A stretch of 64,000 nt of DNA from an uncultured Clostridia bacterium (GCA_900016865.1 FIZI01000005.1:37895-101894); one strand, 5' to 3'. Counted from the first letter of the stretch, positions 2,414-59,831 are shown. Notes: generated by a model not told the origin, from the sequence alone. A program made the numbers and translations.

Positions 2414-3883
2414 CTACCAGGTGAACATAGCCTCGTAAGTTACATCCACTTGAGAGTTTGCAGGGACTTCTACAACAAACGACACAGTATTGGCGTCTAT
2501 CTTCGTATACTCGTGGCTGCTCTGCAAGATCTCGTAGTCTCCATACAATGACTCGACAACTTGGATCTCCACGGTCTCGTCTTTATGATTTCTTAGTTCG
2601 ATTCTGAACGCGTCTTTCCGCGAGTTGGATCCAACTCTTGTCGTGCTGACATTGATCCTCTTGCCTGTTACATCAAAAGCATCGCCAATATAGAGGGTGA
2701 TCTCCTCATCCTTGGGTGTATGGTCAATCGAGTCCTCGCCTACGAACTCAAGGCTGCCATCTACATCGGCTTTGTTGACTCTGACCCTACCCTCAGGTAG
2801 AGGCATGCCCATGTTGTTTTCCTTGGAGTTCTCCAACTTAAGAACCACTTTTACATTTTCCGAGTATGAGTAAGGCTGTGTATACCCGGGAATCCTGCCA
2901 AACACGTATTGCTTCTTAACCGGGATTCCGGACACTGACAACAACTGAATCTGCTTAGTCTGGTTGTTCTTTACAGTGGTCGGGAACTCGAGTTTATAAA
3001 GGTGATATTCAAATAGAGATCTCTCCTCAAAGGACTCCGGAGCAGGACTCGCTGTCCTTCCGACGGCCATGAGGTCGTAGTACACGACCTTGTCCGCAAC
3101 TCGGTGTACATCGCCCGCAACCAGCTTGAGTTCGGCATTTTCAAACTCTACACCGCTATTATTGGTTATCGTAACCCAACCAGTCAGGTCGGCAGTCTTG
3201 TCGTCGTCGCCAAGCGTCAGGACGTAGTCCGCAGACCACGACAGGCCTCCGGTGAGATAGGAGACTTCCATCTCGTGATCAGTCTGATCAGAAGTATTGA
3301 TCATGTTCCAGACCAAGGTCGGCTTCATCACAAGTCCTTCGGGCAGGCTTGGATACCTTATAACTTCGATCTCGCTTCTCGCTATAGAAGTGATCGATCC
3401 GCCGAACGGCCTATCGGCGAGGATCAAGCTCCCACCGCTGGTAGGGACGTTGATCAGATAACCGGCATACTCGGTCCCATCTTTTGTGCGGACCTCGATG
3501 TGCTGACCTAGGAACTTTGATAGCAGCTTGTCGCCGCTTACTGTATCGTACTCGTAGTTTTGTTCGAGGATCCTTATGCTGCCCTCCTCAGTCAACGACC
3601 TGAGGATCACAGACGTCGCGTCTATTCTAGACGGTATGTCAGTAAAGGAGAGAACCGAGTTTCCCAATGGCACTGTTAGAACCCGCACGTCTCTGACGAG
3701 AGCGAGGTTGTCGTTGTATATGGTTAGAAATAGCTTCCTGCCAGTGGGTGCATATGTGTCATCTGTGCCTTCAACAGACGGATTTGTCTGGGCTGCAAAC
3801 ACACTCCCGGCGAGGAGACTTGCGACAATGACTACAGCTGCCAGTATCGCGGGAGTTTTCCAACAAGCTTTCATATAACGCAT
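2414..3883 (-). CDS. secreted DUF4139/DUF4140-family protein (MuiA-like), signal peptide
   Basis: 489 aa with an N-terminal signal peptide (AILAAVVIVASLLAGSVFAAQT). Overall architecture resembles TIGR02231/DUF4139 proteins. The family call is from memory only. Confidence 0.5.
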   Translation of the reverse strand: MRYMKACWKTPAILAAVVIVASLLAGSVFAAQTNPSVEGTDDTYAPTGRKLFLTIYNDNLALVRDVRVLTVPLGNSVLSFTDIPSRIDATSVILRSLTEEGSIRILEQNYEYDTVSGDKLLSKFLGQHIEVRTKDGTEYAGYLINVPTSGGSLILADRPFGGSITSIARSEIEVIRYPSLPEGLVMKPTLVWNMINTSDQTDHEMEVSYLTGGLSWSADYVLTLGDDDKTADLTGWVTITNNSGVEFENAELKLVAGDVHRVADKVVYYDLMAVGRTASPAPESFEERSLFEYHLYKLEFPTTVKNNQTKQIQLLSVSGIPVKKQYVFGRIPGYTQPYSYSENVKVVLKLENSKENNMGMPLPEGRVRVNKADVDGSLEFVGEDSIDHTPKDEEITLYIGDAFDVTGKRINVSTTRVGSNSRKDAFRIELRNHKDETVEIQVVESLYGDYEILQSSHEYTKIDANTVSFVVEVPANSQVDVTYEAMFTW

Positions 3884-4045
3884 GCCCTCACACCTTTCGT
3901 TCAGCGTTTGACGGTCTCACTCAAACTGGACGAATAACCTGGTAGGAGGTTCCCCAAGCTTTGATTTCTAGCAGTACATATTTATGGAAACATCTAGACG
4001 AGCCGCACCGGTTCTTCGATCACCTAAGACAAGTCGATCGATCGA

Positions 4046-5077
4046 TCACTCAACTCTGTCTGCATCATTTGCCTGAGGTTCATCGATCTCATCTGCAGAC
4101 TCCGGCTTTGGCGCTGAAATGAATGTCCCGATATTTCTGAACTTCTCGTACCTCTGTCGGACTAATTCATCGGGGCTGAGACTCGAAAACTGGGATAATG
4201 CGCGTATCAGAGACTCCCTGAGATTCTTGGCAGTACCTTCTCGATCCCTGTGTGCGGCACCACCGGACTCAGGCACGATCTCGTCGATGATTCCAAGGCG
4301 CAGCAGATCATCCGAAGTGAACTTAAGCACCTCGGCTGCTTCCTGCCACCTGCTACCATCTCTCCAGATTATCGCGGCGCACGACTGCGGTGGGCAAACA
4401 GAATAGATGGCGTTCTCCAACATGAGCACCTTGTTCGCTACTCCCAAGGCAAGAGCACCGCCACTACCTCCCTCGCCTGTCACAGCAGCGATCACGGGAA
4501 CCGGCAGTCGCGACATCTCTAGGAGGTTCTGAGCTATAGCTTCGGCTTGCCCTCGCTCCTCTGCTCCGGAGCCTGGGTAAGCTGCAGGAGTGTCGATCAG
4601 TGTGATGATTGGGCGGTTGAACTTGGCAGCCTGCTTCATCAGCCTGAGGGCTTTCCTGTAGCCTTCAGGATACGGCATACCAAAATTTCTCTTGATATTC
4701 TCCTTGGTATCTCGCCCCTTTTGGGTACCAATGACAGTGACAGGCATCCCCTCTAAAAAGGCAATGCCACCGACTACTGACGGATCATCGCGAAATGCCC
4801 TGTCACCGTGGAGCTCGATGAAGTCAGTAAATATACAGGATATGTAGTCCAGTGTAAACGGGCGGCCAGGATGCCGGGCCAACTGGTAGCGCTGGGACGG
4901 GGAGAGATTCTTGAATATTTCATCCCGCAGGCGTTCCGCCCGTGCCTCCAATGCGGCGAGCTCATCAGAAACATCAAACTGCCGCTCACCAACGAAGTTT
5001 CTAAGCTCCTGTATGCGCTTTTCAAGCTCAATGAGAGGCCGTTCAAAGTCAAGGGTAAAGTCACTGGCCATCTGCAA
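4046..5077 (-). CDS. accA: acetyl-CoA carboxylase carboxyltransferase alpha subunit
   Basis: ARHPGRPFTLDYI, PVTVIGTQKGRDTKENIKRNFGMP and PAAYPGSGAEERGQAEAIA motifs. The start overlaps the accD stop by 17 nt (translational coupling). Confidence 0.95.
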   Translation of the reverse strand: MQMASDFTLDFERPLIELEKRIQELRNFVGERQFDVSDELAALEARAERLRDEIFKNLSPSQRYQLARHPGRPFTLDYISCIFTDFIELHGDRAFRDDPSVVGGIAFLEGMPVTVIGTQKGRDTKENIKRNFGMPYPEGYRKALRLMKQAAKFNRPIITLIDTPAAYPGSGAEERGQAEAIAQNLLEMSRLPVPVIAAVTGEGGSGGALALGVANKVLMLENAIYSVCPPQSCAAIIWRDGSRWQEAAEVLKFTSDDLLRLGIIDEIVPESGGAAHRDREGTAKNLRESLIRALSQFSSLSPDELVRQRYEKFRNIGTFISAPKPESADEIDEPQANDADRVE

Positions 5078-54436: not shown

Positions 54437-56071
54437 TCAGTTTTTCATCAAGCACCTAGTTATCCGCCCTTCGATCTCAAGAGCGATAGGTTCCGCAAAC
54501 GACTCTAGATACGCAACAAACGCATCAAGGTCATTAGCTACTACCATTGGGTTCCTGCCTTCCAAGAAGGCCGTAAAGCCATTGCCGCCGTAATACAGGA
54601 AGCTGTTAACGGCAACTGTATACACCTGCTCATCCCCAATCTGCGTGCCGTCTGATAGCGAAGCAGACACTATCCTATTGCCAATAGGCAAACTGTCGTC
54701 GTAGCAGTAGGTCATGCCTGACATTTGGAGAAACCTTACTTGGACTCCATCCTCCGTCTCCTGCCACTGCTGGTTGAGCGCGCTGAGGATCTGCTCACCG
54801 GTCATCTCGATCTTGACGATTTCATTGCCAAAAGGCAAGACAGCGTACAGTTGCCCCCATGTCAATATCCCGGGCTCCAAGTCCGAGCGCAGCCCGCCCG
54901 GGTTGACAAACGCAATCTGAGCTTTGGAGATCCACCTTTTCGAATCAGCAACCAGATTGCCGAGCACAGACTCACCCTGATCTCTGCCTTCCCTTCCAAG
55001 ACGGGTAGCGGCAACTGCGACCGGACGGTTGACCAATGCCTCCACAAGCGGCCTGTATCGATCAATCAAGGCCTCTATCCTAGGATCCGGCGGCCTCATG
55101 TCCGACCACACGGTCACCAGCTCTGCAGTAGACGACACGACGTCTCCTGTCGCCCTATCGATCAGTAAGTCTATGTCTACAAAGGCAGTGCCGTTAGAAT
55201 ACGCCTGTGTGACCAGCTTCCCATCGATGTAGCCGACATAGCCCTGGTGAGTGTGTGCGCTGATTATGACGTCGACAGAATCGTCTATGCCATGGGCCAG
55301 CTTGGCTATGGGCCCAACGATCTCACCTGACGAACTCACATACCCGCCTTCGTGTGCGAGAACTACAATAGCCTCCACACCTCTGTCTCTGACGATCTCT
55401 GCATAGGTGTTTATCACTTCGACCGGGTCGATGACCTTGAGGCCTTGAATGCCTGCCGGCGTCACAGAGGCCGGCAACTCCTCTGTAATGACGCAGATAA
55501 ATGCCACAGGGACTCCTTCGACCACTTTGACGACATACGGCGGGAAGACAGGGCCTCCGGTCTCAGCCGAGACTAGATTTGCGAGCCCGAGAGGAAACGA
55601 GCTGCCAGCGAAATAGCCCGAAACTTCATGAAACCCTCCATACTGAAGCCTGTACAGCTCGGCGATTCCCTCATCGAATTCATGGTTTCCCGGAACTCCC
55701 ACATCAAATCCCATGAAACTCAACACTTCGATAGTAGGCTGATCCTGCAACAGTCCTGAGATCGGAGGGCTCGCGCCAATCATATCGCCTGCATGCACCC
55801 TGAGAGTGTTGACAGCATCGGCCTCCCGCTCGAGCATGTACGTTGCGAGGTACGCAACGCCGCCAACAGGCCTGCCGTCAAGATACTCAGTCTGTTCGAT
55901 ATGCCCGTGCAGATCGTTTATGGCGAGTATCTGCAGACAAACCAGGCCATCCTCAGCAAACGCCAAGCCCGCATCTCCGGGCACCAGCCACGAGACTACC
56001 AACGCGATCAAAAGGCAAACCGCACTTAGTAGTCTAGCCCGCTTTTTCATCTTCGCACCCCCCGTCGGCAA
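54437..56071 (-). CDS. secreted bifunctional metallophosphatase/5'-nucleotidase (UshA/CpdB family)
   Basis: Signal peptide, NDLHG and GNHEFD metallophosphoesterase motifs and a C-terminal nucleotidase domain. Confidence 0.85.
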   Translation of the reverse strand: MPTGGAKMKKRARLLSAVCLLIALVVSWLVPGDAGLAFAEDGLVCLQILAINDLHGHIEQTEYLDGRPVGGVAYLATYMLEREADAVNTLRVHAGDMIGASPPISGLLQDQPTIEVLSFMGFDVGVPGNHEFDEGIAELYRLQYGGFHEVSGYFAGSSFPLGLANLVSAETGGPVFPPYVVKVVEGVPVAFICVITEELPASVTPAGIQGLKVIDPVEVINTYAEIVRDRGVEAIVVLAHEGGYVSSSGEIVGPIAKLAHGIDDSVDVIISAHTHQGYVGYIDGKLVTQAYSNGTAFVDIDLLIDRATGDVVSSTAELVTVWSDMRPPDPRIEALIDRYRPLVEALVNRPVAVAATRLGREGRDQGESVLGNLVADSKRWISKAQIAFVNPGGLRSDLEPGILTWGQLYAVLPFGNEIVKIEMTGEQILSALNQQWQETEDGVQVRFLQMSGMTYCYDDSLPIGNRIVSASLSDGTQIGDEQVYTVAVNSFLYYGGNGFTAFLEGRNPMVVANDLDAFVAYLESFAEPIALEIEGRITRCLMKN

Positions 56072-56089
56072 TACTGTGGCACGAATCCG

Positions 56090-56998
56090 TCAGTATTGAT
56101 ATGACCCCAGAACCTTGAGAGAAATAACCTTTTCGCTGAGCCTGTCCAACGATTCCTTGAGTGCGGCATCTGTCACAGTCCCTTCTACGTCGATGAAAAA
56201 CACGTAATCGCCGTAACCCTGGCGCGAAGGCCTTGACTCAATCCTTGTCAAGTTGATCTGTTTGGCTGCGAACACTCCAAGCAGCTCATACAGGCTTCCC
56301 GGCCTGTCGCGCTCTATTGCACAGACGATCGACGTCTTATACGGCAGTCCTGCCTCAACAAGCAGTGACTTCCGCTCGTTGTCCCCTTTCGATAAGACCA
56401 AAAACCGAGTCACATTGTTCTGCAAGTCCTGAATATCTCTAGCAACTATGTCCAGGCCGTAGATCGACGCACACTGCTCAGTGCCGATCGCAGCTAGCGG
56501 CAATGAGTTAACTGAGACGACCCTGGCTGCTTCTGCAGTGCTGGCTGTCTCGAACTGCTTGGCGTTCGGCAGGTGTTCCGAAAGGAACCTCCTGCACTGC
56601 GCCAGAGCCTGTGGGTGCGACAACACAGTCCCTACTGACGAGAGCTTGGTCCCGCGCTGCACCAAGAGGTGATGCCGGACAGACACAAGCACTTCTCGGA
56701 TGATCTCTGCCGAAGAGTCATGGAAGAGGATGTCCCAGGTAGGGCTAACCGATCCTTCGTAGGAGTTCTCGGCAGGTACAACCGCGTAGTCTATCTCTCC
56801 TGCGTCAACTGCAGAAATGAGAGCTGCTATCCCTTTGTAGGGACTGTAATGCACGCTGTACTGCACGGGCTCCCCCGGCTTGGGTGAAACGCTTGAACCG
56901 ACACTACGAGCTCCTTTTTCTAATAGTGTTCCGACTCTGCGGGCAGCTTCTTCGGAGAACGTGCCCATCGGTCCCAAGTACCCGATTTGTATGTTCAT
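56090..56998 (-). CDS. pheA: prephenate dehydratase with C-terminal ACT domain
   Basis: PDT domain with TRF(LVL) and an ESRP ACT motif. ATG 56998 (MNIQIGYLGPMGTFSEEA) has a GAGGTGA SD, one nt after the aroF stop. The track start 57076 is over-extended. Confidence 0.85.
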   Translation of the reverse strand: MNIQIGYLGPMGTFSEEAARRVGTLLEKGARSVGSSVSPKPGEPVQYSVHYSPYKGIAALISAVDAGEIDYAVVPAENSYEGSVSPTWDILFHDSSAEIIREVLVSVRHHLLVQRGTKLSSVGTVLSHPQALAQCRRFLSEHLPNAKQFETASTAEAARVVSVNSLPLAAIGTEQCASIYGLDIVARDIQDLQNNVTRFLVLSKGDNERKSLLVEAGLPYKTSIVCAIERDRPGSLYELLGVFAAKQINLTRIESRPSRQGYGDYVFFIDVEGTVTDAALKESLDRLSEKVISLKVLGSYQY

Positions 56999-56999
56999 C

Positions 57000-58058
57000 T
57001 CAATTATCACCTCGCAGACAGCCGATATCTTTGACTCTGCTTTCATCATCAGAGAAACGCAATGCCTGATACTCACGCCTCAGTCTCCGAGCGAGGACTT
57101 CGAACTCGTCAGGTGTTAGAGACTGAGGGCCGTCGGAAAGCGCCTCGTTTGGACTCGGATGCACCTCTACCATCACACCGTCCGCACCCGTTGCAAGAGC
57201 AGCTCTCGATAAAGGCATAACGAGTTTCCATCGGCCTGTCGCGTGGCTTGGGTCGACAATCACTGGCAAATGGCTCAACTCCTTGGCAAGAGCCACCGCA
57301 GACAGATCCAGAGTATTGCGGGTGTATGTCTCGTGCGTTCTGATTCCTCGCTCGCACAAGATCACGTCGTGGTTTCCTTCTGACATGATGTACTCGGCAG
57401 CCAGCAGCCACTCCTCAATCGTCGCAGACAACCCACGCTTGAGTACAACCGGACGGTCGACTCGGCCAATCGCCTTTAGCAGTGCAAAATTCTGCATATT
57501 CCTGGCTCCTATCTGCAAGATGTCGCAGTAGTCCGCAACCATGCTGACGTCCTCAGGACTGACTACCTCTGTGACAACAGGCAGTCCCGTAGCTTCCCTC
57601 GCCTCTGCCAAGAGCTTCAGCCCACTCTCCTTTAGGCCCTGGAAGCTATATGGCGAGGTTCTAGGCTTGAACGCTCCTCCTCTCAAGATCGTGGCGCCGG
57701 CAGCTTTGACCCTGAGCGCCACCTCCAATAGCTGCTCTCTGCTCTCAACTGCACAAGGCCCGGCTATGAGCGTGAACGCTCCCCCACCTACGCGAGTTGC
57801 GCCCACTTCTACTACTGTGTCCTCTGGCCTAACCTCCCTCCCACACAGTTTGAAGGGCTGCAGGACGGGTGACACGTGTTCAACAAAAGGCATATAGCGC
57901 AAGTCTGCAAGCCGGTCTCGCCTGCCGTTGCCTATGGCTATTACCTGGCTCCTCCCGTTGCCGTCTATCACGTGAGGATCGAATCCGAGGCTGCTCAACA
58001 TCTCCTTGACAGCTGCAATGGACTCCTCCGGGCAGCCGCTAGTCATAACGACCTTCAC
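57000..58058 (-). CDS. aroF: 3-deoxy-7-phosphoheptulonate (DAHP) synthase, class I-beta with N-terminal ferredoxin-like regulatory domain
   Basis: KDO8PS-like (beta/alpha)8 core ([28 protein letters not shown]) with an N-terminal ~70-aa ACT/FL domain as in Thermotoga-type DAHPS. Confidence 0.85.
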
Positions 58059-58147
58059 TGCTCACCTACTCCCTTCTTCTTGAGCATATGTGAGTTAGGC
58101 CCTACATGAGCTGCAACGCACTTCGATCAAGACGTACTTCCAACAAC

Positions 58148-58517
58148 CAAAAAAGCCCTTCGTCCTAAGGACGAAGGGCCTAACCCTCCGCGGTACCACC
58201 TTGGTTGATCTACAACTCAAACGAGATCCGCTCGATAGAGTACGGGACATGCTCCACGAGAGTCGCCTTCGCAAGCTCTCCAGCGGACACATCCGATACC
58301 CCCTTCCCTGTAACGGAGGAAGCTGCCGTCGAGGCCTACTACTCAGCATCCCTGGCTGGGACGCCGGATTCAGCCTGAGACTCCGGAGCGAACTTCGGAC
58401 TGGTTCATCGCATCGGGCTCCCACCCCGGCTGCTGCCGGCCCCGACTCTCTGGTGCGACTACACAGCCTACTTTGCTCCTTCATAGTCTGTGAACAAATA
58501 TGGCAACAACTGAATTT
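58148..58517 (-). promoter_or_regulatory. T-box riboswitch leader controlling aroF-pheA
   Basis: Minus-strand RNA contains the AGAGAG stem-I base motif. It contains the T-box sequence AACCAAGGUGGUACCGCGGAGG (58186-58207 rc), immediately followed by the terminator GCCCUUCGUCC-uuag-GGACGAAGGGC-UUUUUU (58148-58181). Confidence 0.75.
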
Positions 58518-58523
58518 AGAGTC

Positions 58524-58552
58524 ATTCTACCACAGCAAGTGCATGCGGTCAA
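58524..58552 (-). promoter_or_regulatory. promoter of T-box leader (TTGACC-17-TAGAAT, extended TG)
   Basis: Minus strand TTGACC (58547-58552 rc), a 17-nt spacer and TAGAAT (58524-58529 rc) with an upstream TG. Confidence 0.5.
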
Positions 58553-58601
58553 CGGATGTGCTTGCGCTGATAATGCACCGGAGTCGTCCTCAGGATGCCC
58601 T

Positions 58602-59831
58602 CTACCCTTTGATCACCGCTATCGGACGCACAGTCCTGATCGGTTTGACCAAGTCACGCTCGTAGGCCAGCACTTCATCGATGTCCTTGTATGCTTCGAT
58701 GAACTCATCGACCACAGCGTGGCTCTTGGGAGTGCCGAGCACGACGTCACGAGCCGACAGATCTCTCATCATTTGATCGACAGTAAACCTACGCTTGGCC
58801 TCGTTGCGGCTCATGACACGGCCTGCGCCATGAGATGCAGACTCAAAGGACTCTGGATTTCCGAGGCCCTCGACAAAGTAGCTCTTGCCGCCCATAGCTC
58901 CAGGGATAATGCCCTTTTCGCCTTTTTTTGCGCGAATCGCACCCTTCCTGTGGACGACCACTTCTTCACCGTAGTGTCTCTCGATCGACGCGTAGTTGTG
59001 ATGACACTGCACTACCTGCCTCACATTTGCAGTGACCGAGGCGTGCTTGGACAGGCGTTCTTGAACGATCTCTGTCGCGATTTGCATCATCACAGACCTA
59101 TTCTTCGCAGCAAACCGGAGTGCGAGGTCCATCCACTTGAGGTACATCCGGCCGAGCTCGTGTTCTGTTGGGAGATACGCCAACTGCCAGCTAGCCGGGA
59201 CCTCGCTCTTCATTTGTTCGTTGAGTTTTTTCGCCAGGTTGTTAAACGTGTTTGCGACTTTGTAACCGAAGTTCCGGCTGCCGCTGTGAACCATGATCAC
59301 GAGCTCGCCGGTTGACCCATCCTCCTGCAGTTCTATGAAGTGATTGCCACCGCCAAGGGTGCCACACTGATACGGGGCACTCTCCCACTCCTTGCACAAC
59401 GACTTGATCTCGCACATATCGGCTGTCGGAGACATCTCCGGATCGATTGGCCGCTTCCTGTGTTCAAATCCCAGTGGGATTGCACGCATGATATCCCCTG
59501 TGAGAGCCTGAGCAAGCGTTCCGCTGCCTGTCTTGACTTCTCTCAGCAGCTTCGCAGGTGCATCGAGCACTGAGCCAATCAGGCCGCATCCGATGTCTAC
59601 TCCGACTGCGTTCGGTATCACCGCACCCTTTGCAGCTATGACTCCTCCGATAGGCATTCCGTAGCCCTCGTGTACATCAGGCATGAGTGCGACATGGCTC
59701 ACCAAAAACGGAAGCCTTGAAAGGTTTAGCGCCTGAGCCATAGCTCCCGACTCAATATCGTCAGCAGACTCCAACCAAGCCTTGATAGGTACTCTCTGGA
59801 CGCTACGATCAAAGATGGTGATCATCTGCAC
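58602..59831 (-). CDS. rtcB: RNA 3'-phosphate/5'-OH ligase RtcB
   Basis: GGNHFIE, CHHN and SHGAGR metal/GTP-binding motifs, 409 aa. Confidence 0.9.
   Translation of the reverse strand: MQMITIFDRSVQRVPIKAWLESADDIESGAMAQALNLSRLPFLVSHVALMPDVHEGYGMPIGGVIAAKGAVIPNAVGVDIGCGLIGSVLDAPAKLLREVKTGSGTLAQALTGDIMRAIPLGFEHRKRPIDPEMSPTADMCEIKSLCKEWESAPYQCGTLGGGNHFIELQEDGSTGELVIMVHSGSRNFGYKVANTFNNLAKKLNEQMKSEVPASWQLAYLPTEHELGRMYLKWMDLALRFAAKNRSVMMQIATEIVQERLSKHASVTANVRQVVQCHHNYASIERHYGEEVVVHRKGAIRAKKGEKGIIPGAMGGKSYFVEGLGNPESFESASHGAGRVMSRNEAKRRFTVDQMMRDLSARDVVLGTPKSHAVVDEFIEAYKDIDEVLAYERDLVKPIRTVRPIAVIKG

Follow-up and report, generated by a model that had tools for sequence, protein, structure and literature searches.

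On the minus strand of the window (the whole 64-kb stretch of DNA that was analysed), the segment 58552..58149 in front of aroF and pheA comprises a full-length T-box leader together with its conserved promoter and its intrinsic terminator. We judge this leader, with a probability of about 0.9, to be a class I transcription-attenuating T-box that is specific for tRNA-Phe and controls aroF-pheA in an uncultured Bacillota lineage. The leader is a new member of the known T-box family, with insertions that are decorative, and it leaves unchanged how T-boxes work. The first-pass annotation had placed a T-box riboswitch in front of aroF-pheA, and both parts of that claim were borne out: RF00230 was matched over its full length with all canonical motifs present and with structure and covariation kept in five relatives, and Pfam identified DAHP_synth_1 plus FXD, then PDT plus ACT, directly downstream. 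In annotations of this lineage, aroF-pheA can be entered as an operon under the control of tRNA-Phe charging.

Family assignment and structure of the leader

A scan of the whole window at Rfam gathering scores returned no match to any family, and in this form the covariance check proposed in the first-pass annotation failed. In E-value mode the same check succeeded over the full model length: RF00230 (T-box) matched the region with 85.3 bits (E = 6.4e-19) against a gathering score of 93, a cut-off that curators set for reporting and that has no biological meaning of its own. The match spanned model positions 1-219 of 219. When the whole window was searched against all 4227 families the RF00230 match had E = 4.6e-17, and no other family was found at E<0.01. 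Four further families, IR_84, anti-hemB and two of snoRNAs, matched only weakly, far under their cut-offs, and were rejected; the first two merely overlapped the terminator hairpin. The T-box assignment rests mainly on the covariance-model score. [quoted passage not shown] The leaders of five relatives likewise scored under the RF00230 gathering score (72.0-90.7 bits), and the low score therefore reflects the leader architecture of the lineage and not damage to the copy in the window.

Every canonical class I T-box element is present in the leader (Table 1). The K-turn of stem I is built from the strands AUGAAGG...CCGGAGU, and its specifier loop carries the AGUA/GAA S-turn. The stem I helices were paired in 6/6 sequences (the window and the five relatives), and the CGC helix among them showed compensatory changes. 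Both sequence motifs of the putative elbow platform, AGAGAG and GGUGGGA, were present, and the apical loop also holds an extra 5-bp hairpin, here called ES1. The AGAGAG motif had been pointed out from the sequence alone and was located at 58451..58446 (-). The apical heptamer read GGUGGrA in 5/6 lineage sequences and GAUGGAA in L170. An A-U to G-C compensation was seen in the base helix of stem II, and in stem IIA/IIB none of the 8 pairs varied, and all of them formed in the six sequences. Stem III was flanked by GAGCG or GAGAG on its 5' side and by AA on its 3' side (6/6 sequences), with a U-A to C-G compensation in the stem; the RRRNG-stem III-AA motif has been described (PMC7778990).

Table 1. 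Features of the aroF-pheA leader and its surroundings, in window coordinates.
Feature	Position	Strand	Basis or remark
sigma-70-type promoter: -35 TTGACC, 17-nt spacer, extended -10 TGTGGTAGAAT	58524..58552	-	10/12 consensus matches + TG
T-box leader, extent of RF00230 match	58164..58493	-	85.3 bits, E 6.4e-19
Stem I: K-turn (UGA/GA), specifier loop (5' AAAGUA, 3' GAAGUUCG), middle helices, AG bulge, distal helix, apical loop	58380..58487	-	model alignment
AG bulge (ACCAGAGAG), one half of putative tRNA-elbow platform	58446..58454	-	aligned to model AGAGA; invariant in relatives
ES1, 5-bp hairpin CCGGC-AGCA-GCCGG, 14 nt, 5' part of stem I apical loop	58426..58439	-	scored as 19-nt insertion
Apical-loop heptamer GGUGGGA (model GGUGaaA), second half of putative elbow platform	58419..58425	-	sequence, relatives
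Specifier codon UUC (Phe), then conserved purine G (58389)	58390..58392	-	model alignment, conservation
Stem II with S-turn (GAA/AGUA)	58330..58378	-	model alignment; 22-nt insertion
ES2, 9-bp hairpin at stem II apex	58342..58368	-	folds; 22-nt model insertion
Stem IIA/IIB pseudoknot, F-box CCGUUA (58316..58311), IIB = CUUCC with GGAAG	58303..58328	-	model alignment
ES3, linker hairpin, 58 nt, flanks invariant UAUCGG...CCCGUA	58241..58298	-	inside 66-nt model insertion
Stem III and flanks, GAGCG-stem-AA (RRRNG-stem III-AA motif)	58205..58233	-	sequence, relatives
T-box sequence and antiterminator: helix A1, 7-nt bulge UGGUACC, 8-bp helix A2	58167..58206	-	model alignment
Intrinsic terminator: 13-pair stem (11 Watson-Crick), UUA loop, U6	58149..58181 (stem 58153..58181)	-	terminator scan
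Spurious 129-aa Arg-rich ORF over stem I through terminator	58095..58484	-	ORF scan
aroF, DAHP synthase (type I-beta) with N-terminal ferredoxin-like regulatory domain	57000..58058	-	Pfam DAHP_synth_1 8e-85, DAHP_snth_FXD 9e-10
pheA, prephenate dehydratase with C-terminal ACT domain	56090..56998	-	Pfam PDT 2e-57, ACT 4.5e-12

The elements on the minus strand follow the order promoter, leader (~370 nt), terminator, spacer (~90 nt), aroF and pheA. A consensus scan of 57800-58900 returned a single promoter-like site (shuffle mean 0.3), and this was the TTGACC-17-TAGAAT promoter named in the first-pass annotation (58552..58524, -), which was found to carry a TG extension as well. The pattern GTTGAC-17-TGTGrTArrAT was common to all six lineage sequences at a fixed distance from the T-box, and the flanks had diverged. 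At the other end of the leader, the strong terminator that had been described as an 11-bp stem with U6 was recovered as 13 pairs, 11 of them Watson-Crick, at 58181..58153, followed by six T. The antiterminator sequence claimed for the minus-strand leader was likewise found: the T-box core GGTGGTACCGCGG at 58200..58188 (-) was the sole match in 64 kb with 1 mismatch allowed (shuffle mean 0.02).

The antiterminator is formed by the T-box sequence AAGGUGGUACCGCGG with the bulge UGGUACC, whose UGGU occupies 58198..58195 (-). Its 3' arm is also the 5' arm of the terminator, and the two folds are mutually exclusive. Before the terminator 3' arm exists, the antiterminator was the best fold of the nascent RNA, at -14.5 kcal/mol; with the whole expression platform in its terminator state, a small upstream hairpin included, the value was -26.4 kcal/mol. 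The terminator was thus more stable than the antiterminator by ~12 kcal/mol in the window, and by 9.5-14 kcal/mol in the relatives. A stronger terminator and a weaker antiterminator constitute a default-off arrangement, as expected for the T-box family. In the six sequences the antiterminator was paired in 100% of cells, with a G-C to A-U compensation, and the terminator in 97.4%. At alignment column 375 a C->U change was accompanied by G->A in the antiterminator partner and by G->A in the terminator partner. Since this column covaries with both partners, both alternative folds are supported.

By analogy with the mechanism established for the family, the leader would bind tRNA, sense its charging and regulate the operon as follows. 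Transcription would start ~7 nt past the extended -10, and stem I would bind tRNA-Phe(GAA) by pairing of UUC with the anticodon and by stacking of the AG-bulge/apical-loop platform on the tRNA elbow. The 3' ACCA end of uncharged tRNA-Phe would pair with UGGU of the 7-nt bulge, and this pairing would stabilise the weaker antiterminator (-14.5) against the terminator (-26.4 kcal/mol) and allow readthrough into aroF-pheA. With charged tRNA-Phe the terminator would form, and transcription would end at the U6 tract.

The start of pheA lies 1 nt past the aroF stop, and gene calls on contigs with the identical sequence concur. The FXD and ACT domains of the two enzymes probably add allosteric feedback to T-box control. 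The aroF start falls at 58047-58058 (-): members of the cluster with identical aroF were called as 352 aa (GTG) or as 348 aa (ATG, codon 5), and the Pfam FXD profile aligned from residue 1 of the 352-aa form. An RtcB gene lies upstream of the leader on the same strand. On the other side, 40 nt past pheA, a secreted 5'-nucleotidase/metallophosphoesterase with a signal-peptide-like N-terminus is encoded at 54437-56050 (-), and simple scans of the gap between the two genes (56051-56089) found no promoter-like or terminator-like site. The gene order aroF-pheA-nucleotidase was kept in 5/5 relatives. The nucleotidase gene may be co-transcribed under the Phe T-box, a functionally odd pairing. No tRNA or tmRNA genes were found in the whole window (1-64000).

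Relatives and covariation

Many metagenome assemblies encode an aroF protein identical to that of the window, as do NCBI MAGs that carry the label Bacillota bacterium. On three fetched contigs that encode it, the leaders were identical to that of the window and added no variation. Among GTDB species representatives and JGI metagenomes, aroF relatives reached at most 64% identity, most of them without a T-box, and in the nearest GTDB species representative aroF was only ~60% identical. A large protein collection yielded five relatives from uncultured Bacillota with aroF identities of 73-78%. Their synteny was RtcB-(MtaB)-gap-aroF-pheA-5'-nucleotidase, and in 5/5 of them the gap before aroF contained a full-length RF00230 match. 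The gene between RtcB and the leader, an MtaB-family gene (PF12176, ~460 aa), was present in three of the five relatives, L167, L170 and L173, and absent from the window and L164. Gene calls in two of these loci ran into the leader. In L170 (2501-3904, P0004) aroF was called as 467 aa, with ~115 extra N-terminal residues across the T-box, and in L164 (2103-2369) an 88-aa gene with no Pfam match was called inside it.

The structure was tested with 60 hand-drawn pairs on the six-sequence alignment (window plus five relatives), which gives 360 cells. Standard pairs were found in 98.6% of these cells, compared with 38-53% when the 3' partners were slid by 1-3 columns. Six pairs were altered on both sides, and 0/500 shuffles attained the observed covariation score. 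Because the six leaders are close relatives, in which most pairs are invariant, the covariation is to be read as supportive of the proposed structure but not as strong evidence alone.

Several more distant loci differed in how the region upstream of aroF, or the operon behind it, was arranged. In L178, L179 and L180, aroF homologues with 63-65% identity head the operons aroF-tyrA, aroF-pheA-tyrA and aroF-tyrA-aroA, and the gaps of ~330-380 nt upstream of aroF contained no T-box or other Rfam match at E<1e-4; these genes may be under other control. In L028 (Firmicutes MAG UBA4053) the stretch 2547-3000, past the first terminator, holds a second stem III-like hairpin, the T-box sequence GGGTGGTACCGCG (2910) and a U-tract terminator, with no recognisable second stem I, as if the expression platform had been duplicated in tandem or in part. 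In L056 (Clostridiaceae MAG) DAHP synthase (FXD plus catalytic domain) and prephenate dehydratase lie in one 558-aa ORF at 2884-4560 with no ACT domain; aroF and pheA appear to be fused there, downstream of a UUC T-box, though the start listed for the ORF falls inside the leader.

Specifier codon and alternative readings

The specifier loop of the RF00230 model has eight unpaired 3' positions (GAAauuca), and these were filled exactly by GAAGUUCG of the window, within GAAGUUCGC at 58396..58388 (-). UUC takes positions 5-7 of this 8-nt loop, and the next base is an unpaired G in 6/6 sequences, all of which read GAAG-UUC-G. The register was fixed by comparison with the loops of other aroF leaders. 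Those with UAC read GAAA-UAC-A (L020 and L100, Pelosinus-type) or GAA-UAC-C (L008, Syntrophomonadaceae MAG), and the other UUC leaders (L028, L056, L059, L101 and L181) read G/CAAG-UUC-A/U. Position 25 was A in 3/6 sequences and G111 never varied. The C25-G111 pair is hence not conserved, which leaves G111 unpaired as the purine that follows the codon. A 7-nt-loop register, GAA-GUU-C, was rejected, given that it needs the unconserved C25-G111 pair and would place a pyrimidine after the codon.

The UUC leaders stood before aroF plus prephenate dehydratase in 9/11 cases, among them L028, L056 and L059, and before aroF alone in the remaining 2/11. All three UAC leaders (L008, L020 and L100) stood before aroF plus prephenate dehydrogenase. 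This pairing of specifier and operon was tried prospectively on four more loci, which proved informative only in part; L178, L179 and L180 had no T-box, and L181 had UUC before aroF alone. With near-identical loci collapsed, the comparison comes down to ~4 UUC versus 2 UAC lineages (exact p roughly 0.07), and we regard the correlation between specifier and operon as corroboration, not proof. The criteria of TBDB for specificity are the specifier codon, the match of the discriminator to UGGN and the function of the downstream gene (PMC7778990). Applied to frame 0 in the window, all three (UUC, the UGGU bulge, and aroF plus pheA downstream) agreed with Phe. The discriminator of tRNA-Phe is usually A73, which fits UGGU; G73, the usual base in bacterial tRNA-Ser, could pair with UGGU only by wobble. 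The first-pass annotation had offered UUC followed by a purine as an uncertain candidate, with UAC and UGG as the codons to be compared. Judged by its codon position in the model's 8-nt loop, the invariant unpaired G and the operon correlation, the specifier resolves to UUC.

A functional T-box might nevertheless read the codon one position off, as GUU (Val, -1) or UCG (Ser, +1), or might answer more than one tRNA. Two or three admissible frames are on record for thousands of leaders (TBDB, PMC7778990), and in every UUC leader seen a G preceded UUC, so that the 4-mer GUUC makes GUU as conserved as UUC. Yet a GUU specifier would call for the rare anticodon AAC; in TBDB, no more than 8.6% of U-ending specifiers were found to have a tRNA partner (PMC7778990). 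The base after UUC varied among UUC leaders (G, A, U), so that the +1 frame would need different Ser isoacceptors. Val and Ser are both ill-suited to an operon for DAHP synthase and prephenate dehydratase, the UUC-pheA/UAC-tyrA correlation fits frame 0 only, and the C25-G111 pair needed by the 7-nt-loop alternative was absent in 3/6 sequences. We consider such a shifted or mixed specificity improbable, and take UUC in frame 0 as the specifier.

Still less probable is a decaying or non-functional relic. Decay would explain why the leader scored 85.3 bits and not 93, and why it carries large insertions at three places, including the apical loop that binds the tRNA elbow. It is at odds with the intact state of all functional motifs in the leader, and with the conservation of leader, promoter and terminator across relatives whose aroF differs by 22-27%, where compensatory changes maintain the helices. 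The insertions folded as hairpins in every relative, and the score deficit was common to the whole lineage (72-91 bits), which fits an architectural variant and not a broken copy. Relatives also bear on the 129-aa Arg-rich ORF, which is uninterrupted from its ATG start and could be taken for a real small protein or leader peptide, the more so as the equivalent place in some relatives was called as a gene of 88 aa or as an N-terminal extension of aroF by 115 aa. Its frame, however, met a stop after 8-66 codons in 5/5 relatives when aligned, its start codon varied (ATG, GTG, GCG), and indels were not multiples of three. Variable columns by codon position (43/103, 36/102 and 42/103) showed no third-position excess. 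The ORF had no Pfam match, was not called on identical contigs and runs through the intrinsic terminator. We give a protein product hardly any credence, and agree with the earlier view of this ORF as an artefact of the T-box leader that overlies it.

Inserted hairpins and comparison with known systems

ES1 lies directly 5' of the apical GGUGGrA. Its length was fixed and its stem kept in the six sequences, with a different tetraloop in each, and none of the 8 other aroF T-boxes examined had it. The counterparts of ES2 in the relatives are all hairpins, 27-73 nt long, each with a sequence of its own. ES3 folded at -26.9 kcal/mol (z = -3.5), and in the relatives hairpins of 31-35 nt stood in the same place. 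The ES3 flanks with a short hairpin were also found in L028, L059, L101 and L181, and in L056 as the variant AUAUCGG...CCCGUAU; what sets the window apart is only the length of ES3, expanded to 58 nt.

ES1 is the only mildly unusual feature of the leader. No description of a hairpin insertion in the stem I apical loop was found in a non-exhaustive search of the literature. That ES1 creates a structurally distinct elbow-binding platform, the apical 'loop' having turned into a bulge capped by a helix, seems to us doubtful. ES1 might provide an additional contact with tRNA-Phe or tune the kinetics of binding, and ES2 and ES3 might serve as extra contacts or as transcription pause elements. The inserted hairpins, and above all ES1 in the elbow-binding loop, offer a natural test of how much decoration the T-box core tolerates. 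For annotation, the Rfam cut-off of 93 bits conceals a bona fide T-box in at least six related genomes, and gene callers put false products there.

Compared with class I T-box leaders of the tyrS type (RF00230), the leader in the window has the same domain order and conserved motifs, a codon followed by a purine, a UGGN bulge and mutually exclusive folds. It differs from them in its three extra hairpins, ES1, ES2 and ES3, and in its score of 85.3 bits versus 93. T-boxes for Phe and Tyr have reportedly been found before aromatic amino acid biosynthesis genes of Firmicutes, which would be a precedent for the present case. The window resembles these Firmicutes systems in that DAHP synthase and a branch-specific enzyme are together under a T-box. 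T-box control of tyrosine biosynthesis has been described in the B. cereus group (PMC2494555). Compared with other aroF T-boxes, the host in the window belongs to an uncultured Bacillota lineage, and among those examined the ES1 hairpin occurred only in this lineage. In the staphylococcal glyS T-box a lineage-specific stem, Sa, is likewise inserted in an otherwise canonical T-box, and its authors considered it undetectable with current bioinformatics tools (PMC9177973). [quoted passage not shown]
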